64,000 nucleotides of DNA from an uncultured Gammaproteobacteria bacterium (GTDB taxonomy: Bacteria; Patescibacteriota; Microgenomatia; Daviesbacterales; UBA10151): NCBI GenBank assembly GCA_964551605.1, contig CAZKCV010000001.1, positions 61,992-125,991 of the forward strand. Reading direction: 5' to 3'. The notes beneath the pieces were generated by a model. That model was not told the DNA's origin. It made no database searches and saw only the letters and a program-made list of their open reading frames with translations. Below, one piece after another: positions 815 through 19,818 of this stretch (within the stretch, counting starts at the first letter, position 1; every line of letters begins with the position of its first letter). The position numbers and the translations under genes were made by a program.

Positions 815-1198
815 TCAACCGGCCTTCTGCAGATAGCTTCTGACTTCCGTTAACACCTGGTCAGGATTTAAGGCAGACTTTATCAGGTAGCCGTTTGCCC
901 CCAGCTCAAAACATTCCCGGATAACTGTATCCTGCCCCAAGTTTGTTAAAACAACAATTGTCTGAGGTGATTTAGGCGGAGACGCCTTCAAATCCCTTAA
1001 TATCTGGACACCATCTTTTTTAGGCAGCATCAGGTCTAAAAGAACCAGATTATAGGCGTTGTTTTGAATCTTTGTTAAACCTGTTTCACCTTCAGCTGCC
1101 GTATCAATGGTATAACCTTCAGCTACGAGCAGCTCTTCGTAAAATTCCCGTAAGAACTGATCATCTTCAACTATCAAGATCTTCTTCTGTTGATCCAT
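815..1198 (-). CDS. single-domain response regulator (CheY-like receiver)
   Basis: KILIVEDDQFLREFYEELL...LVLLDLMLPKKDG receiver motifs. It lies 47 bp downstream of the histidine kinase gene on the same strand. Confidence 0.8.
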   Translation of the reverse strand: MDQQKKILIVEDDQFLREFYEELLVAEGYTIDTAAEGETGLTKIQNNAYNLVLLDLMLPKKDGVQILRDLKASPPKSPQTIVVLTNLGQDTVIRECFELGANGYLIKSALNPDQVLTEVRSYLQKAG

Positions 1199-4089: not shown

Positions 4090-4956
4090 CTCATTTAAAT
4101 ACTCGGTAAATTCTTCACCTATCTCCGGATGCTTCTTGGCTAAATCAACCACGGTTTTCATGTACTCCAATTTATTGCCGGTATCATAATATTTGGCATT
4201 TTTCACCTCCACCGTATAAAGAGGAATGCCTTCATCACGCAGTAAGTTTATGGCATCAACCAGCCAGATTTCCCCGCCTTGACCCGGTTGGACCCTTTTG
4301 AGGGCCGAAAAAATTTCCGGAGGCAGGATATAAGCACCATGGGTAGCCAGGTTAGAAGGAGCTTTATCAGGATCCGGTTTTTCTACTATTGACTTAATCT
4401 TGTAGACATTGCCTTCTACCGGCTCAAGGTCTGCTATGCCGTAGCTGCTTAGATCCTCTTTTTTCTCAATTCTAACCCCGGAAATAACCATCCCCCCGTA
4501 TTTTTCATAGACATCAATCATTTGTTTTAACCGGGGCGGCTCTGCCAAAATAAACTCATCCCCCCAAACCACCGCAAAAGGCTCATCTTCAATGACCGAT
4601 TCCCCGGAAAGAACAGGTGTACCGTTGCCATAGGAACCTTTTTGGCGGATGTATATAAAATTAGCCATCTCCGAGATGTTTTTTAACTGCTCCAGGATCT
4701 TCTCTTTATTGCCGTTTACCAGGTTTTGAACCAAATCCTCGCTTGGCATATCAAAATGATCTTCAATGGCCCGCTTGGTGGCACCGGTCACCATAATAAT
4801 ATTGTCTATCCCGGAGCCGACTATTTCTTCCACCACATATTGGATAACAGGTTTATCCACAATGGGCAACATCTCCTTGGGCATGGCCTTGGTTTGGGGG
4901 AGGAAACGGGTTCCAAACCCGGCGGCAGGTATTAAAGCCTTAGTTATTTTTTTCAT
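4066..4956 (-). CDS. galU: UTP--glucose-1-phosphate uridylyltransferase
   Basis: KALIPAAGFGTRFLPQTKAMPKEMLPIVDKPVIQYVVEE is the classic GalU N-terminus. Length 296 aa. Confidence 0.9.
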   Translation of the reverse strand: MKKITKALIPAAGFGTRFLPQTKAMPKEMLPIVDKPVIQYVVEEIVGSGIDNIIMVTGATKRAIEDHFDMPSEDLVQNLVNGNKEKILEQLKNISEMANFIYIRQKGSYGNGTPVLSGESVIEDEPFAVVWGDEFILAEPPRLKQMIDVYEKYGGMVISGVRIEKKEDLSSYGIADLEPVEGNVYKIKSIVEKPDPDKAPSNLATHGAYILPPEIFSALKRVQPGQGGEIWLVDAINLLRDEGIPLYTVEVKNAKYYDTGNKLEYMKTVVDLAKKHPEIGEEFTEYLNELVQNPQG

Positions 4957-9821: not shown

Positions 9822-9905
9822 GCCGGGGTGGCGGAATGGCAGACGCGAAGGTCTCAAAAACCTTTGGTCCTAAAGATCATGAGGGTTCGACTCCCTCCCC
9901 CGGCA
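9822..9905 (+). tRNA. tRNA-Leu(CAA), class II with long variable arm
   Basis: Acceptor GCCGGGG/CCCCGGC. Anticodon stem AAGGT/ACCTT with loop CTCAAAA (anticodon CAA). Long variable arm. T-arm GAGGG-TTCGACT-CCCTC. Discriminator A. No encoded CCA. Confidence 0.85.
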
Positions 9906-9907
9906 CA

Positions 9908-13319: not shown

Positions 13320-14023
13320 CTAAAATCTTCTTTGCCATTGGTTAAAAATTCCTCTGCCTCTGATTTATCTTTGACAACGTCAACAGCCCGCCAAAATCCT
13401 TCATCCTTAAACCCCAAAAATTTCTCCTTGGGGATTTTGGGAAAGGTTTCCTTTTCATGATCCCCCTTCTCAGGCAAAAGAGGCTCAACATCTTTGTTAA
13501 AAAGATAAATTCCCCCGTTTATCCAATAAGGCAGTTTGGGTTTTTCTTCAAAACCGGTAATATGGTCGTCTTCGTCAACCTTTACCACACCCCATCTGGA
13601 AATATAAGGCACCAGGAGCAGGCTGACTAAGGCTTGCTGATCCAGATGTTTTTTGATCATGTCAGATAGATTTAATTTGGTGATAATGTCACCGTTACAA
13701 ACCACCACATCTGTTTCACCGATAATAAGAGGGCTCTGAAAAGCTTTCTTGATTCCCCCACCCCTACCTAAAGGGGTTTCTTCAATGGAATAATCAACTT
13801 CTATTCCGAATTTTGAGCCGTCCCCGAAATATTCCTGAACAACGTGATACATATAACTGACTGTTAAAACAAATTTGGTAATTCCGTGGGATTTAAGCCA
13901 TTCTATCTGCCAGGCTAAAATGGGCTTGCCGTTAATTTCCACCATCACCTTGGGCCTGTCATTGGTGTAAGGCCGGAGCCTCTCCCCCTTCCCCCCTGCC
14001 AAAATTATTGCCGTCTTAACCAT
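13316..14023 (-). CDS. sugar-phosphate nucleotidyltransferase (NTP_transferase family)
   Basis: MVKTAIILAGGKGERLRPYTNDRPKVMVEINGKPIL has the G-x-G-x-R-L motif. Start moved to the ATG at 14023. Confidence 0.75.
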   Translation of the reverse strand: MVKTAIILAGGKGERLRPYTNDRPKVMVEINGKPILAWQIEWLKSHGITKFVLTVSYMYHVVQEYFGDGSKFGIEVDYSIEETPLGRGGGIKKAFQSPLIIGETDVVVCNGDIITKLNLSDMIKKHLDQQALVSLLLVPYISRWGVVKVDEDDHITGFEEKPKLPYWINGGIYLFNKDVEPLLPEKGDHEKETFPKIPKEKFLGFKDEGFWRAVDVVKDKSEAEEFLTNGKEDFS

Positions 14024-14109
14024 AAGTAGATATATACCATAAACAAAAATTCTGAAAAAGTCCAGCATTTTAGTTTGCAAATAGAAGGTCCTGAGACTAA
14101 AATTCCTAT

Positions 14110-14637
14110 ATGAGTGATAGAGATGTAGCTAATTCTCCAAATGCCGGCGTAATCAATATGGCAAATACGAACTCTCGTACCCGGGCCAGGTCATTTAACA
14201 TCAGGAAAGTGCCTACCCATAATTATGCTCAATATGTCCGAACCGTAAAAGCCTATGCCCTGGCCGGCATGACTTTTGAAGATATTGCCAATGCCGGAGA
14301 TTTTCTGGAAGATGAAGTGGAAAGATTAGAAATTGATGCTCCGCTTCAACAGGACTGGAAAAATATGGCCGGAGAAGTAGCAGAAGATGAAAGCAAGATA
14401 TTAGCCTGGCAAGCCAGGGGGGAAACAGTTTCCATTACTGACCAACTATCTTCTCCGGCCGGCAATACAGGTAAAGAAGTTATGATAATCTCCAAAGACC
14501 TGGTCACTGTTGAACAAAATACAGAACAAACTATAGAGGTTATAGAAGGAATAAAAGTGTCGCTGGAGGTGGATTCACAGTTAGAAAATAATCCCTACCT
14601 TCAATCAATTGTGGGAGATCTCAAAAAAGCAGCTTAA
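14110..14637 (+). CDS. hypothetical acidic protein
   Basis: ORF only. No recognisable motif. Confidence 0.35.
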   Translation: MSDRDVANSPNAGVINMANTNSRTRARSFNIRKVPTHNYAQYVRTVKAYALAGMTFEDIANAGDFLEDEVERLEIDAPLQQDWKNMAGEVAEDESKILAWQARGETVSITDQLSSPAGNTGKEVMIISKDLVTVEQNTEQTIEVIEGIKVSLEVDSQLENNPYLQSIVGDLKKAA

Positions 14638-14667
14638 TTATGTTGGACATGCCTTGGACACCCAGGA

Positions 14668-14701
14668 CACCCTAGGGGTGGGTGTAGGTTGCCACCCCAG
14701 G
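14668..14701. repeat. 34-bp CTAG-palindrome dispersed repeat, copy B
   Basis: caccctaggggtgggtgtaggttgccaccccagg, with a partial extra ggacacccagg immediately upstream. Confidence 0.7.
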
Positions 14702-14724
14702 TAATTTATTAACCGATAGTAAAT

Positions 14725-14752
14725 TTGACAACAGAAATTTTTGTGGTATACT
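14725..14752 (+). promoter_or_regulatory. sigma-70-type promoter TTGACA-16-TGgTATACT driving the leader RNA
   Basis: ttgaca at 14725-14730. Extended -10 tggtatact at 14744-14752. Confidence 0.6.
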
Positions 14753-14758
14753 GTATTT

Positions 14759-14940
14759 ACAACTTAATAACCAAAGACGTTTGTACCGAAGTCACGACTC
14801 GGGAGTCGAGAGCCAAATACTCTACGGAAGTTTAACCGTTAAATGAAACAGACGATGTTGGAAAACCAAAGTCGCCACTAAGAGTCATGAACCGTAATGG
14901 TTCGTGGAAACAGGATGGGACCGCGGGAGGTCCTTTTTTT
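14759..14940 (+). ncRNA. candidate T-box riboswitch leader (tRNA-His type) ending in an intrinsic terminator
   Basis: GGATGGGACCGCGG at 14913-14926 matches the T-box core GGGTGGNACCGCGG at 12 of 14. The variable N is G, complementary to discriminator C73 of tRNA-His. The motif overlaps the 5' arm of the terminator hairpin. hisS lies downstream. Confidence 0.4.
14917..14940 (+). terminator. intrinsic terminator (GGGACC-gcgggag-GGTCC + T7)
   Basis: A 5-6 bp GC stem followed by a run of 7 T. Confidence 0.55.
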
Positions 14941-15090
14941 GAGCTCATGAGTATGAGCGCAGTCGAATACCTTCCGTTCCTTGTTCACTATTTGTCATCC
15001 CGGACTTGATCACACGTGTCAAGAGCCAACGGGATCCATACAGATAATGGGCAAAGAACGGGAGGTTTTTTTGTGGTTAGAAAGGAAGAT

Positions 15091-15756
15091 ATGAAATTAA
15101 ATAAATATTTAATAGCAGATGGTAATTCTACCCTTCTAGTTAAGAGTTATAAGTCTTGTGAGAAAGAAACAATCATTAGAAAATACCTGGGAGAGGTTGA
15201 ACAAATAGGATTTATTTCCTATCCAAGGGGAATCCCCAAACTTTTGATGATGGGGAACGAATTAAGTATTAATGCAACTCTTGCTCTGGCTGCAATGCTA
15301 TCCAATAAATCCGGAAGACTACTATCAAGTGGTTATAAAGGATTTGTACAATATGAGAACCAGAAACAATACACGAAAATACGACTAAGCATTGCATACG
15401 AAAAATTCGACAATACCGCGCTCTTAAATGGCATTGGATATGTATTTCTAAAGAGAAATAAACAAATAAACAAAAATTATTTATCCGGCTTATGTTCCAA
15501 ATATAATCTTCCTGCTTTTGGGGCAATTTTCTATAAGAAAAATCGACTAATTCCCTATGTGTATGTCAAACAAACAAATTCCTTATTTAAAGAAACTGCT
15601 TGTGGTTCAGCTAGCATTGTCCTAAACATCTTGACTGGAAAAAAATTTATCACTCAACCAACTGGAGAAATCATTACTGTAGAAAAAAACGGAAATGATT
15701 TTACAATTTCAGCAGAAATAACCAAAAAAATAACGGGAGGTTTTTTAAAACTATGA
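15091..15756 (+). CDS. DapF/PhzF-fold protein (diaminopimelate-epimerase-like) lacking the first catalytic Cys
   Basis: YLIADGNSTLLVK resembles the DapF GNDFVVV start. ELSINATLALAAML occupies the EMCGNGxRCxA site but with Ser in place of Cys. KETACGSASIV matches the second-Cys block GETLACGTGA. SD aaaggaag precedes the ATG at 15091. Confidence 0.4.
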   Translation: MKLNKYLIADGNSTLLVKSYKSCEKETIIRKYLGEVEQIGFISYPRGIPKLLMMGNELSINATLALAAMLSNKSGRLLSSGYKGFVQYENQKQYTKIRLSIAYEKFDNTALLNGIGYVFLKRNKQINKNYLSGLCSKYNLPAFGAIFYKKNRLIPYVYVKQTNSLFKETACGSASIVLNILTGKKFITQPTGEIITVEKNGNDFTISAEITKKITGGFLKL

Positions 15757-16124
15757 CAGAAAGACAGTTTGATATTGCAAAAGTAAATTTCGAATCATTC
15801 AGAAACCTGACTGAAGATATCGTCACAGCCATTATCTTTGATGATGACACCAAAGAGCATTTAATGGTGGGATTTATGAATAGAACAGCTTTAGAAATGA
15901 CTTTGGAACGGAGAAAAGTTGTATTCTACTCGCGTAGTCGCAAAGCATTATGGTTCAAAGGTGATACTTCTGGGAACCGATTCTTATTAAGAAGAATTGT
16001 ACCAGATTGTGACGGGGATGCTTTAGATATATACGTAGAACCATTAGGCCCAGCCTGTCATACAGGTATGAGAACATGCTTTATTGAACCACCTTCTATT
16101 GAAGAAGGTAAAGAAAGGATATAA
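15753..16124 (+). CDS. hisI: phosphoribosyl-AMP cyclohydrolase (HisI, PRA-CH domain only)
   Basis: LMVGFMNRTALEMTLERRKVVFYSRSRKALWFKGDTSGN, DCDGDALD and GPACHTG..TCF align closely with E. coli HisI. ATGA overlap with the upstream gene. SD gggagg. Confidence 0.85.
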   Translation: MTERQFDIAKVNFESFRNLTEDIVTAIIFDDDTKEHLMVGFMNRTALEMTLERRKVVFYSRSRKALWFKGDTSGNRFLLRRIVPDCDGDALDIYVEPLGPACHTGMRTCFIEPPSIEEGKERI

Positions 16125-16131
16125 TAAATAA

Positions 16132-17376
16132 ATGATTAAAGCACAAACATTAAAAGGATTTCGGGATTTTTTACCGGGTGAAGCCCGCAAGCGTCAGTAT
16201 GTCATAAATAAGTTAAAAGGAGTTTTTGAGTCCTTTGGGTTTGAACCTCTGGAAACTCCGGCTCTGGAATATGAAGAAGTGCTTCTCGGAAAATACGGAG
16301 AAGAAGGCGATAAACTAATGTACCGTTTTACAGATAACGGTGGTCGTAAAGTGGCTTTAAGATACGACCAAACTGTACCTTTAGCCAGAGTGGCAGCCCA
16401 GTATCAAAACGAGTTGCCAATGCCTTTTAAAAGATATCAAATCCAGCCTGTCTGGAGGGCTGAGAATACCCAAAAAGGCCGATTTAGGGAATTTTTGCAG
16501 TGTGATATTGATACAGTTGGCACCACTTCTCCCCTTGCAGATGCAGAAATAATTGCTGCTGCCGCAAAATCTCTACAGGAATTGGGATTTAAGAATTTTA
16601 AGATTATTATTAATGACCGTAATATCTTTGCTCTTCTTTTAAAACGTAAGGCTTTCAGTGAAAAGTCCTTACAAATTATCATAAAAACCATGGATAAATT
16701 GAAAAAGATTGGCCGGGAAGCGGTTTTAGATGAAATGATTGAGAAAGGCATCCCTTCTGAGCAGGCCACTTATGCTATCCAAACTATTGAACAAATGCAG
16801 CCGACTGATAATTTACGGCAGATTTTTGATTTACTGGTAAACCTGGGTGTTGATAAATCCAGATTCGAATTTTCCCCCACTTTAGCCAGAGGCCTGGACT
16901 ATTACACCGGCATGATTTTTGAACTGGAAGTTGAAGGTTATACAGCCGGTTCAGTAGCAGGTGGCGGGAGATTTGATAATCTGATTGGTTTATTTACCGG
17001 CAAGAGTCTTCCGGCAGTAGGTGTAGCTTTTGGATTTGATCGCTTAATCGAGGCCATGGACCAACTTAATCTGTTCCCAAATGATTTAGCCACATCCAAG
17101 GTTCTAATAACGATATTTTCTTCTGAGTTAGAAGAAAAATCTATAGAAATTAGTTCTCGCTTGCGCTCGAACAATATAAACTCTGAACTCTGGCTGGATC
17201 CGGAAACTAAACTGGAAAAACAATTAAAATATGCCGACCAAAAAGGCATCCCTTATGTAATTATCATTGGCCCGGAGGAGGCTGAAGCAAACAAAGTAAC
17301 ATTAAAAAATCTGGAAAGCCAAACCCAGGATAAACTGATTACACTTGACGAAGCTATCCGAAAACTGACATCATAA
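16132..17376 (+). CDS. hisS: histidine--tRNA ligase
   Basis: Class II aaRS motifs in FRDFLPGEARKRQYVINKL, RYDQTVPLARV and GGGRFDNLIG. C-terminal anticodon-binding domain present. Confidence 0.9.
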   Translation: MIKAQTLKGFRDFLPGEARKRQYVINKLKGVFESFGFEPLETPALEYEEVLLGKYGEEGDKLMYRFTDNGGRKVALRYDQTVPLARVAAQYQNELPMPFKRYQIQPVWRAENTQKGRFREFLQCDIDTVGTTSPLADAEIIAAAAKSLQELGFKNFKIIINDRNIFALLLKRKAFSEKSLQIIIKTMDKLKKIGREAVLDEMIEKGIPSEQATYAIQTIEQMQPTDNLRQIFDLLVNLGVDKSRFEFSPTLARGLDYYTGMIFELEVEGYTAGSVAGGGRFDNLIGLFTGKSLPAVGVAFGFDRLIEAMDQLNLFPNDLATSKVLITIFSSELEEKSIEISSRLRSNNINSELWLDPETKLEKQLKYADQKGIPYVIIIGPEEAEANKVTLKNLESQTQDKLITLDEAIRKLTS

Positions 17377-17380
17377 TAGT

Positions 17381-18319
17381 GTGAGTTCACAAATTCTTAA
17401 AAGTCCCCTTCCGTATATTGCCCTGATTGTTGCGCATCTCATCTGGGGAGGTAATGTGGTAGTAGCAAAAATTACCTTACAGGAATTTCCGCCGATGACA
17501 CTGGCACTTCTCCGCTTTGCCTTTGCTTCCCTGCTGTTAGCTCCTTTTTTCCTGGCAGAAACGAAAAAAGTAAAAATTGACAAAAAAGATCTGCCTAAGC
17601 TGATTGCCATTGGGGTTTTTATCATCACCTTAAACATAACTTTCTTTTTTGAAGGCATCAAAAGAACTACCGCTATAGATGCCTCTATTTTGGGCCTAAT
17701 CGTCCCCATACTTTCAGTACTCCTGGGCTGGTGGTTTTTGAAGGAGAAAATTTACCTGATCAATCTTGGCGGCATTAGCTTAGGTTTAATCGGAGCTCTG
17801 ATCATCTTAGGTTTGCCTAATTTATTTTCCGGGAGTGCTTCACTGGAAAAAGTCACCGGCAATATACTGATTATTATGGCCTCAATCAGTTGGGTAATTG
17901 GGGCAGTTATATCCCGGAAAATTTTATCTAAATACTCCTCTTTGGTAGTGACCGCTGTAGCCTTCTTAGTTGGGACAATAACCTTTTTTATCCCGGCAGC
18001 TCTGGAATATATTCAAAATCCGGGCTGGATTAGCCAGATTACTACCCTGGGAATTTTGGGCTTAATCTATATGACACTGCTTTCTTCCATTTCTGCATTC
18101 TTCCTGTTAGAGTGGGGCTTGTCTAAAACATCCGTAATTACTGCTGACCTGTTTAAATATATAGAGCCTTTTGTGACTACAACATTAGCTGTCCTTATTT
18201 TAGCTGAGAAGCTATCCAGCCAATTCTGGATAGGAGCTTTGCTGATCGCCATCGGAGCCTACTTGGGAACCCTAGCTAAAGAAGCCCACCATAGACACCA
18301 TAAGGCTCACAGGGTGTGA
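17381..18319 (+). CDS. DMT-superfamily (EamA) transporter, 10 TM
   Basis: Two EamA-like halves with multiple TM helices. 4-bp gap after hisS. Confidence 0.75.
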   Translation: MSSQILKSPLPYIALIVAHLIWGGNVVVAKITLQEFPPMTLALLRFAFASLLLAPFFLAETKKVKIDKKDLPKLIAIGVFIITLNITFFFEGIKRTTAIDASILGLIVPILSVLLGWWFLKEKIYLINLGGISLGLIGALIILGLPNLFSGSASLEKVTGNILIIMASISWVIGAVISRKILSKYSSLVVTAVAFLVGTITFFIPAALEYIQNPGWISQITTLGILGLIYMTLLSSISAFFLLEWGLSKTSVITADLFKYIEPFVTTTLAVLILAEKLSSQFWIGALLIAIGAYLGTLAKEAHHRHHKAHRV

Positions 18320-18402
18320 GCCTTGCGATAGTTCCACCACCTTCGGTGGTGTAATAACTATCTAAAGGCCCACAGAGTCTAGGTATTTTAAGCCTAGACT
18401 CT
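18304..18402. repeat. cluster of three perfect stem-loops after the transporter gene
   Basis: ggctcacagggtgtgagcc; ccaccaccttcggtggtg; agagtctagg-tattttaag-cctagactct (10-bp stem with CTAG cores). No trailing U-run. Confidence 0.5.
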
Positions 18403-18428
18403 TGACTCTCGACTCTAGCCACTATTTT

Positions 18429-18437
18429 TGCTATACT
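18429..18437 (+). promoter_or_regulatory. extended -10 promoter (TGcTATACT) placing the TSS at or next to the rpmE ATG (leaderless candidate)
   Basis: -10 ends at 18437 and the ATG is at 18445. No SD sequence. Confidence 0.45.
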
Positions 18438-18444
18438 ACTCTCC

Positions 18445-18771
18445 ATGAAAGCTAATATTCACCCGCAATGGCATCCGGAGGCTACAGTTACTTGTGCCTG
18501 CGGCAATACTTTTGTAACCGGCTCGACAGTGCCGGCAATTCGCGTGGAAATTTGCAGCGCCTGCCATCCGTTTTTTACCGGCCAGCAAAAATTTGTAGAT
18601 ACCCTAGGCCAGGTTGACAGATTCATCAAGAAAACAGAAACCTCTAAAGTAAAACAGATCGAGCGAAAGAAAATTTTAGAAGCCAGAAAGTCCAAAGTAG
18701 AAGAGAAGAAGAAAGACCGGCCGACATTAAAAGACCTGCTCCTGCAAGCCAGAAAACAAGTCTCTTCTTAG
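18445..18771 (+). CDS. rpmE: 50S ribosomal protein L31 (Zn-ribbon type) with Lys-rich C-terminal extension
   Basis: [23 protein letters not shown]...[14 protein letters not shown]. Confidence 0.85.
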
Positions 18772-18882
18772 ATACCTCCCACTGTCATTCCAGACTTGAT
18801 CTGGAATCTATATAGATTCCTGCTTTCGCAGGAATGACAAGGTATAATAATCCTAAGAGCGATTAGCTCGCAAGATTTTCTT

Positions 18883-19818
18883 ATGAATCAAGATTACCTA
18901 AAAGAACAAATTGATCAGATAAACAGACGCATCCAGGACATCAAGTCTTTGCTGGAAGATCCGGAAATGGCTGAACTGGCAGCAGAGGAAATTACCGAGC
19001 TGGAAAGACAAAAAGAGGAATTGCAGTCATCAGTCGTCAGTCATCAGTCGTCAGATGATTCAAACAGTCTGACAGCTGACAGCGAAGCGATACTGAAATC
19101 TGACAGCTGTATATTAGAAATCCGCTCAGCAGCCGGCGGAGATGAAGCCGGGCTTTTTGCCGGAGATTTGCTGCGGATGTATACCAAGTTTGCTCTAAAT
19201 AAAAAGTGGAAGATTGAGGAACTGGACAGATCAGAGGGAAAATTAGGGCAAATTAAGGAAATTGTACTCAAAATAGTCGGAAAAGGCTGTTTTGACTTAT
19301 TAAAATATGAATCCGGTGTACACCGGGTACAAAGGGTACCCACCACTGAATCTTCCGGCCGGATTCACACTTCAACTTCCACCGTAGCAGTACTCCCCCA
19401 TGTCACGGAAGCACAGGTTGCTATTAATCCGGGAGATATAGAATTTGAGGCTTTCAGAAGCGGAGGCGCAGGAGGACAAAATGTTAATAAAGTCTCCACA
19501 GCCGTCAGACTAAAACACATCCCCACAGGAATCACAGTCACTGCCCAAACCGAGCGTTCACAGTTACAAAACAGGGGAAATGCCCTTTCGCTCCTTAGAG
19601 CCAAGCTCTGGGAAATGGAGCAGCAAAAAACTGTCGGAGATATTGAAACACAAAGATCTACTCAAGTGGGAACCGGTGAAAGATCGGAAAAAATCAGGAC
19701 ATATAATTTTCCCCAAAACCGGGTGACTGACCACCGGATCAACAAATCCTGGCATAATTTAGACAGGATCTTAGAAGGAGACCTGGATGATATCATCCAA
19801 ACCCTCTCAGTACATTAA
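18883..19818 (+). CDS. prfA: peptide chain release factor 1
   Basis: GGQ motif ([18 protein letters not shown]). Codon-recognition tripeptide region [17 protein letters not shown] is PxT-type. Contains the 7-bp tandem (cagtcrt)x4 at 19024-19054. Confidence 0.85.

Follow-up and report, generated by a model that had tools for sequence, protein, structure and literature searches.

The 64-kb window analyzed here (64,000 nucleotides (nt) of contig CAZKCV010000001.1; all positions are counted from the first letter of the window) raises the question of what controls expression of a four-gene operon (15073–18319) that includes the histidine genes hisI and hisS. An earlier interpretation made from the letters alone, referred to here as the sequence-only reading, had proposed that the RNA ahead of these genes is a T-box leader that responds to tRNA-His and drives the operon. 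Our computational analyses upheld this proposal, based on a family of related leaders, covariation of their helices, and agreement between the specifier codon, the discriminator base and the functions of the downstream genes. They indicated that the leader is a tRNA-His-responsive T-box riboswitch of compact architecture, to which we assign a probability of roughly 0.85. The leader and the operon are on the forward (+) strand.

To identify relatives of the leader, an alignment of homologues of the first protein of the operon was used to fetch 80 genome loci. Ten of these had AAGGATGGGACCGCGGGAGGTCC and a T-run upstream of the homologous gene, and their proteins were 30–50% identical to that of the window. 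One metagenome scan with AGGATGGNACCGCGNGAG yielded 120 further loci, approximately 70 of which contained the full leader (individual loci are denoted below by L numbers). A covariance model, R1, was built on 34 diverse leader copies. The window copy (14772–14941) scored 162 bits and was the sole match to the model in the window, with no further T-box of the R1 class in the 64 kb, and there were 78 strong matches elsewhere, which places the window leader in a family with about 78 members. Among the 34 sequences, 90.7% of cells were paired, compared to 64.7% in shuffled controls and 32–44% with slid partners, and there were 292 double-change cells versus 84.5 in the shuffles. The pairing was comparable for 74 distinct R1-aligned sequences (92.2% of cells versus 67.3% shuffled). 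The relatives with taxon labels were assigned to Woesebacteria, Levyibacteriota, Shapirobacteria, Daviesbacteria and the "Patescibacteria group", all Microgenomates-type members of the Candidate Phyla Radiation (CPR), and the family was found mostly in contigs of such bacteria. The leader was absent from those loci of PF26317 homologues that were labelled Saccharibacteria, Peregrinibacteria or Desulfovibrio.

The T-box core reported in the sequence-only reading, the 14-mer GGATGGGACCGCGG (14913–14926), is indeed present, with a single mismatch to GGGTGGNACCGCGG rather than the two originally counted. On its own this 14-mer is not significant in the 64-kb window, as at least one match with two or fewer mismatches occurred in 38 of 100 shuffles. 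Similarly, the single-sequence fold of 14755–14945 is not unusually stable (z = -0.83), and the Rfam scores were sub-threshold. These results would be consistent with an element that plays no part in the operon, either a separate small RNA (about 180 nt) or a sequence that resembles a T-box by chance. We consider that explanation extremely improbable, given the fixed position of the leader upstream of histidine genes across proteins that are 30–50% identical, the covariation of multiple helices, and the concordance of codon, discriminator and gene function. In approximately 78 contigs this leader, its helices covarying, precedes histidine genes, which indicated that more than chance is involved.

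The 5' part of the T-box leader contains a decoding module. Its Stem I domain (14776–14807) has a basal helix (GAC 14776–14778 with GUC 14805–14807), an asymmetric K-turn-like internal loop (3' strand GA, 14803–14804; 5' strand GUA in the window copy), and a Stem I of four base pairs (bp) (CCGA 14786–14789 with UCGG 14799–14802) closing a 9-nt apical loop, AGUCACGAC. The basal helix covaries, with AGC/GCU exchanged for UCC/GGA between clades, and Stem I is paired in 99.6–100% of cells with compensatory changes at all four pairs. The apical loop holds the histidine specifier codon CAC (14793–14795), next to which is the purine G14796. CACG was invariant in the 34-sequence alignment and CAC was present in all family members found. 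The sequence-only reading had correctly expected a His specifier (CAC or CAU), to be sought in the specifier loop of a Stem I with a K-turn. Stem I is not of the long type with K-turn, internal specifier loop and distal platform, but is an ultrashort hairpin with the codon at its apex. With a Stem I of 4 bp and a 9-nt loop, the window copy has no distal platform (AG bulge and distal loop), and it falls outside class I (long Stem I) because there is no such platform to stack on the tRNA elbow. With a short Stem I whose apical loop holds the specifier, the window copy agrees in this respect with the definition of class II (PMC7583486).

Mini Stem II (14809–14823) follows, with four pairs (AGAG 14809–14812 with CUCU 14820–14823) closing a conserved A-rich loop, CCAAAUA; all four pairs covary and 99.7–100% of cells are paired. 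The region 14824–14849 comprises Stem IIA, the F-box and pseudoknot IIB. Stem IIA (ACGG 14824–14827 with CCGU 14836–14839) covaries, and CCGUUA (14836–14841) was aligned to the F-box by the Rfam model. The pseudoknot (GUUU 14830–14833 with AAAC 14846–14849) is paired in 77% of cells and has two-sided changes at all four pairs. Between the IIA/B pseudoknot and Stem III there is a lineage-specific linker stem (14853–14874; CGAUGUUGG with CCAAAGUCG), in which 83–87% of cells are paired and six to seven of the eight pairs have changed on both sides. Its internal G.A, between U.G pairs, is invariant, and some relatives have big insertions in this stem.

The 5' part of the discriminator (14880–14911) consists of AAGAG (14880–14884), Stem III (14885–14907) and AAAC. 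The A-G-x-G of the purine string is invariant, Stem III covaries, and the arrangement AAGAG-Stem III-AA agrees with the published motif RRRxG-Stem III-AA (PMC7583486). The T-box sequence and the 5' strand of helix A2 are at 14912–14930, with AGGAUGGGACCGCG at 14912–14925. This T-box sequence was nearly invariant among the 34 aligned leaders and has one mismatch to AGGGUGGNACCGCG. It includes a 7-nt bulge, UGGGACC (14916–14922), whose UGGG is the predicted binding site for the CCCA-3' end of the tRNA.

The partner of the T-box sequence was found downstream. In nearly every leader the first U-run is followed by CCUCUCGUUCCUU, and the window version, CCUUCCGUUCCUU (14970–14982), supplies the 3' strand of both A2 and A1 and is also the 5' arm of a terminator. 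The pairings were assessed in a 3' alignment of 53 leaders, entry to which required a T-rich tail (five or more T within the 8 nt that follow the hairpin). Helix A1 (AGGA 14912–14915 with UCCU 14978–14981) was 98% paired and helix A2 (GCGGGAGG 14923–14930 with CCUUCCGU 14970–14977) was 96.5% paired. The wobble that closes A2, G14923.U14977, was a G.U in 53 of 53 leaders; the G.U pair at this position is the aminoacyl sensor (PMC7583486). The rare changes were compatible or compensatory, in that a G-to-A change at 14926 was always opposite U and an A-U pair was replaced by G-C in L121. Three leaders, L094 and L121 (A2 loop of 6–7 nt) and L135 (4 nt), keep the switch in what is the canonical compact layout.

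The canonical terminator, T2 (14969–15072), is a long imperfect hairpin (14969–15066; 3' arm AAAGAACGGGAGG, 15053–15065) followed by U7 (15066–15072), with a folding energy of -52.8 kcal/mol (z = -4.08). Its core was 91.7% paired in the 53 leaders and its variable extension, in which covariation is abundant, was 88.5% paired, compared to 37–57% with slid partners. Since the terminator and the antiterminator share the strand 14970–14982, the two folds are mutually exclusive. The OFF state (-65.6 kcal/mol) is favored over the forced antiterminator (-51.0 kcal/mol) by 14.6 kcal/mol, and owing to this greater stability the terminator is the default fold, as expected for a T-box. A conserved mismatch was noted in T2 at window positions 14980/15055 (in 43 of 53 leaders the C faces A, U or another C); the mismatched C14980 is the partner of G14913 in A1. 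The second G-rich/U-run element described in the sequence-only reading (GGGAGG and U7, 15060–15072) is present as stated. It had been regarded there as an oddity that lowered confidence, and is instead part of the real terminator, formed by the hairpin 14969–15066 and U7.

The 3' arm of T2 also contains the Shine-Dalgarno (SD) sequence GGGAGG (15060–15065), located 7 nt ahead of the start codon GTG 15073. This location would suit a purely translational T-box, as in Actinobacteria, in which the long hairpin merely sequesters GGGAGG and the U-runs are incidental, one a spacer between SD and start codon and the other filler in the A2 loop. Such a view gains from the fact that ultrashort Stem I has so far been linked to translational T-boxes, and from the L093 group, which has an SD sequestrator and no U-run. 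We consider it unlikely for the window leader based on three findings. First, a run of five or more T follows the T2 hairpin in 50 of the 53 leaders, although this set was pre-selected for a T-rich tail. Second, the same hairpin and U-run occur directly upstream of tRNA-His genes, which are not translated. Third, the window offers an alternative start codon, ATG 15091, whose separate SD-like site, GAAAGGAAG, is not sequestered. The class II platform, an SD sequestrator without an intrinsic terminator, thus differs from that of the window, where U7 follows the hairpin.

A sequestrator-type platform was matched by the L093 subgroup only. In these leaders there is no U-run and UUCCUU pairs with the SD GAGGAGG. 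By its predicted pairing the subgroup is a translational variant, and the lineage would span terminator-type, dual and sequestrator-type platforms. The targets in this subgroup are hisG, an M15 (VanX-like) dipeptidase and an SLOG/LDcluster4 protein. L093 itself has two convergent leader copies (978–1154 (+) and 4638–4814 (-)) about 3.5 kb apart, and L106, L109, L110 and L188 likewise have two.

Within the A2 loop of the window leader is a second structure, hairpin 1 with U7 (14917–14940; stem 14917–14934, GGGACC with GGUCCU, loop GCGGGA; T run 14934–14940). The sequence-only reading had noted this hairpin and its T7 at the same position and had taken it as the T-box terminator. This assignment did not hold, as the canonical partner of the T-box sequence is 14970–14981. 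The comparison of antiterminator and terminator folds that had been suggested did reveal alternatives, but they are formed by 14970–14981 and 14969–15066 rather than by hairpin 1. Equally, the overlap of the T-box sequence with the 5' arm of a terminator had been described as typical of genuine T-boxes, whereas a genuine T-box sequence pairs with that arm and does not form it. A "slipped" antiterminator, in which the T-box region pairs with the adjacent UCCUU of hairpin 1, was discarded as the main switch, since its pairing is disrupted in the UCCAA and UCUC variants and it is the downstream strand that yields the canonical geometry.

Hairpin 1 has a folding energy of -10.2 kcal/mol and was terminator-like in a terminator scan. 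Its 5' arm is the tRNA-binding bulge, and its loop and 3' arm include the 5' strand of A2. With the bulge and the A2 strand occupied in this way, hairpin 1 excludes both the pairing of the tRNA 3' end and the antiterminator. It was kept in 51 of the 53 aligned leaders (98.5–100% paired), always with a T-rich run to its 3' side (counted as at least six T per 10-nt stretch). Seven of the 51 have an inserted GC that lengthens the stem to 8 bp, and in these seven the U-run has its complement in an A-run further downstream, a pairing that would lengthen A2 in the ON state. Hairpin 1 is absent from the long-Stem-I leaders L121 and L135 and from the ultrashort leaders L094 and L039.

The conservation of hairpin 1 and its U-run, its performance in the terminator scan, and its physical exclusivity with tRNA 3'-end pairing could suggest that hairpin 1 with U7 is the only regulated terminator, blocked directly when uncharged tRNA pairs with UGGG, and that the next 130–150 nt are an unrelated spacer or second element. 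We find this very unlikely, as the near-invariant CCUCUCGUUCCUU complements both the T-box sequence and the 3' arm of the terminator, the downstream strand recreates the canonical layout of 7-nt bulge, G.U-closed A2 and terminator, and L121, L135, L094 and L039, which have no hairpin 1, retain the downstream switch. In the T-box reading with T2 as the terminator, hairpin 1 would act as an anti-antiterminator, and probably also as an early terminator or pause. A crude scan of the window for hairpins with U-runs gave no clear separation of hairpin 1 as terminator or not. A pause at hairpin 1 would suit a T-box that makes no fast elbow contact. The portions of the T-box literature consulted, including those of PMC7583486 and PMC9177973, describe no insertion whose strand folds back to pair with the bulge and precedes a U-run.

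Two relatives differed in this region. In L039:3448–3660 (Shapirobacteria) the bulge is shortened, UGGG being followed directly by CGGG, and the canonical terminator is intact; a tRNA-His gene is located about 200 nt further downstream of the leader. L018:3797–3951 is a decayed copy with an intact decoding module (R1, 86.6 bits), in which the T-box sequence has been replaced by another hairpin and U5 (AGCUCA...UGAGCUUUUU).

As the four-segment alternative pairing of the leader resembles that of classical attenuators, attenuation by ribosomes on a leader peptide rich in His, the mechanism of the his operon of enterobacteria, was also considered. There is no leader open reading frame (ORF) with a run of His codons, and we rejected this explanation, whose probability we regard as negligible.

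The specificity for histidine was supported by the genes that adjoin the leaders. The CAC specifier is complementary to the GUG anticodon of the adjoining tRNA-His genes, and the bulge was UGGG in all family members found except L135 (UGGA). Of 73 unique leaders, 17 had tRNA-His (GUG) as their first downstream gene (L005:3913–3987, L087:3735–3809, L108:4528–4600, L181:2686–2758, L196:4173–4244 and 12 more loci), as did L039, and no other tRNA type was found in this position. The tRNA-His gene often begins 0–1 nt past the terminator U-run. All 17 of these co-located genes have the anticodon GUG, an encoded G-1 and C73. The variable G of the bulge (UGGG) is complementary to this discriminator base, in agreement with the pairing with C73 suggested in the sequence-only reading. 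At these loci the leader, as judged from its position, controls the gene of its own ligand, tRNA-His.

The protein-coding genes downstream of family leaders were hisS (the commonest), full his operons, HisE, the racemase-like gene, EamA, and M20 and M15 peptidases. In the full his operons, HisG and HisD were identified by Pfam, the next ORFs were read by eye as HisC/B/H/F, and these were followed by HisI, identified by BLAST. No specificity other than His was found among the metagenome matches to AGGATGGNACCGCGNGAG. The non-G bulges among those matches were chance matches to coding sequence, ordinary Firmicute-type T-boxes (L113), or L135, which is a His leader. The L113 T-box is upstream of an ORF that we take, by eye, to encode a protein like alanyl-tRNA synthetase.

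Several points weigh against the assignment of the leader as a transcriptional tRNA-His T-box. At the gathering threshold, an Rfam search of the whole window identified tRNA-Leu only. RF00230 (T-box) was the top match at a permissive E-value (E = 0.092 in a 551-nt search), with 17.9 bits versus a cut-off of 93, and a score below threshold had been named in the sequence-only reading as a result that would refute it. The alignment to RF00230 is full length, however, and places the F-box, Stem III and the T-box sequence, while 78 Stem I positions collapse to 9. We attribute the low score to the missing distal Stem I and not to the absence of a T-box. The other permissive Rfam matches (GlsR5, sroE and NPPA-AS1) were dismissed as chance. 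Two relatives with a long Stem I, L121:2822–3062 (-) and L135:1589–1800 (-), have the same T-box and terminator sequences and are upstream of tRNA-His; they matched RF00230 with 83.7 bits (E = 1e-16) and 71.6 bits (E = 1e-13), respectively, both also below 93. Based on the shared 3' domain and these scores, L121 and L135 connect all of the lineage with the T-box family as homologues. None of the families in Rfam 15 captures the compact form of the leader.

The remaining points against this assignment concern structure and mechanism. Transcriptional T-boxes are held in general to need a long Stem I, which has been argued on kinetic grounds from the elbow contact (PMC7583486). C73 of tRNA-His normally pairs with G-1 (TBDB paper), and pairing of UGGG with C73 would consequently require the opening of G-1:C73. 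A canonical G.A/A.G K-turn is not recognizable in the window copy, nor is a canonical S-turn in its Stem II. Finally, there is almost no variation in the 5' strands of A1 and A2, and for this reason the support for the antiterminator consists mainly of conserved complementarity, compact variants and a few compensations, not rich covariation.

Having weighed these points, we judge the leader to be very probably a genuine T-box whose new aspects are the combination of an ultrashort Stem I with intrinsic-terminator platforms, the CPR hosts, the bulge-sequestering hairpin, and the frequent link to tRNA-His genes. More tentatively, and with somewhat less than even odds, we speculate that it represents a His-only T-box lineage of CPR bacteria that regulates transcription without an elbow platform. 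This lineage would compensate with hairpin 1, which occupies the bulge, and its U-tract, serving as anti-antiterminator and as a pause or early terminator and giving a three-hairpin relay with two sequential checkpoints gated by the acceptor end of the tRNA, and would feed back on the tRNA-His gene in about a quarter of cases.

In the mechanism that we infer for tRNA binding, antitermination and hairpin 1, transcription would start at about 14759 and the decoding module (ultrashort Stem I, mini Stem II and the IIA/B pseudoknot) would capture the GUG anticodon of tRNA-His. Hairpin 1 would form early and lock the bulge and the A2 strand, a checkpoint that tRNA binding would have to beat. If the tRNA is uncharged, its free CCCA-3' end would pair with the UGGG of the bulge and stabilize A1 and A2; the antiterminator would then consume the 5' arm of the terminator, allowing RNA polymerase to read into the four genes of the operon, from the racemase-like gene to the EamA gene. 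With charged tRNA, or none, the more stable terminator (14969–15066 and U7) would form and bury the SD GGGAGG.

The likely source of this transcript is a sigma-70-type promoter at 14725–14752, present as the sequence-only reading had stated, with a -35 box TTGACA (14725–14730), a 16-nt spacer and an extended -10 box TGgTATACT (14744–14752). It matches the consensus at 11 of 12 positions in addition to the TG extension and was the top site within 14000–19000. Related leaders have a TTGACA box and a TG-extended -10 at an equal upstream distance, and we place the transcription start near 14759. Upstream of the -35 box, at 14640–14724, there is a GC-rich inverted repeat (GGGGTGG...CCACCCC) and a motif, CCCCAGGTAA...ATAG.AAATTTGACA, both of which were also found in the closest relatives, L011, L030 and L078. 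They may represent the terminator of the upstream gene or mere shared ancestry. The tRNA-Leu (CAA) gene of the window (9822–9906) is about 5 kb upstream of the leader. The synteny is conserved, as L127, L138, L139 and L160 have the same tRNA about as far away.

The operon itself consists of a CntK_N/histidine-racemase-like gene (15073 or 15091 to 15756; 221 or 227 residues), hisI (PRA-CH; 15753–16124), hisS (16132–17376) and an EamA transporter gene (17381–18319). Its genes are tightly packed, as the sequence-only reading had described, with the correction that the gap between hisI and hisS is 7 nt rather than 8. The first protein is a member of CntK_N (PF26317) and has weak matches to solved histidine racemases (9cr1, E = 1e-5) and to diaminopimelate epimerases; its earlier label as a DapF-fold protein was a fair one. 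The start codon of this gene, within the translation start region 15060–15093, is ambiguous. A 100% identical protein of 227 residues, P0001, begins at GTG 15073, and the N-terminus of relatives, MKxxKFLIA, agrees better with ATG 15091. For the HisS of the window, an exact-match look-up gave no recorded protein. The presence of a racemase-like gene and an EamA exporter or importer in the operon suggests the scavenging of D-histidine or a related compound during histidine starvation.

If the assignment is correct, T-box regulation extends to CPR bacteria; our literature searches found no paper linking T-boxes to CPR, Patescibacteria or Saccharibacteria. It would also challenge the rule that T-boxes that terminate transcription need a long, elbow-binding Stem I, and would make the kinetic argument directly testable on a small natural RNA. 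As far as the first U-run, the leader measures about 180 nt. The T-box switch would gain a new level from the conserved hairpin at the tRNA-binding bulge, and T-box control of a tRNA gene would give this class of riboswitches a new type of target. In addition, for organisms regarded as mostly auxotrophic, the family outlines a histidine-starvation regulon (racemase-like enzyme, transporter, peptidases, hisS and tRNA-His).

His-specific canonical T-boxes are found upstream of hisS or his operons in Firmicutes. With the canonical transcriptional T-boxes (RF00230), the window leader shares the F-box, the RRRxG-Stem III-AA motif, the T-box sequence, the 7-nt bulge UGGNACC, a G.U-closed A2, a mutually exclusive terminator with a U-run, and a regulon composed of a synthetase, biosynthesis genes and a transporter. 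Unlike them, it has no distal Stem I (AG bulge, distal loop and interdigitated T-loops), base 4 of its T-box sequence is A rather than G, and there is a terminator-like hairpin within its A2 loop.

In its decoding module the leader is more reminiscent of the actinobacterial ileS T-boxes (class II with an ultrashort Stem I, from M. tuberculosis and N. farcinica; PDB 6UFG and 6UFM). Both have the specifier in the apical loop, no elbow-binding platform, a reliance on Stem II and the IIA/B pseudoknot, insertions in A2 and the same discriminator core. They differ in that the actinobacterial leaders respond to tRNA-Ile and act translationally through an SD sequestrator, whereas the window leader is from a CPR bacterium, corresponds to tRNA-His and has two hairpins with U-runs. 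The window leader also differs in its 4-bp Stem II, which has no recognizable S-turn, and in its extra linker stem.

The insert in the A2 loop has a counterpart in stem Sa of the staphylococcal glyS T-box, likewise a lineage-specific A2 insertion that modulates the switch (PMC9177973). As described in the consulted portions of that paper, stem Sa is an appended stem of 25–50 nt, whereas the insert in the window pairs back onto the T-box bulge and is then followed by U6–8. Lastly, the relay of bulge (segment 1), A2 strand (2), shared strand (3) and terminator arm (4), which can pair as 1:2, 2:3 or 3:4, resembles the four-segment attenuators of trp and his leaders. This likeness is an analogy only, as the occupant of segment 1 would be the acceptor end of a tRNA in place of the stalled ribosome of those attenuators.

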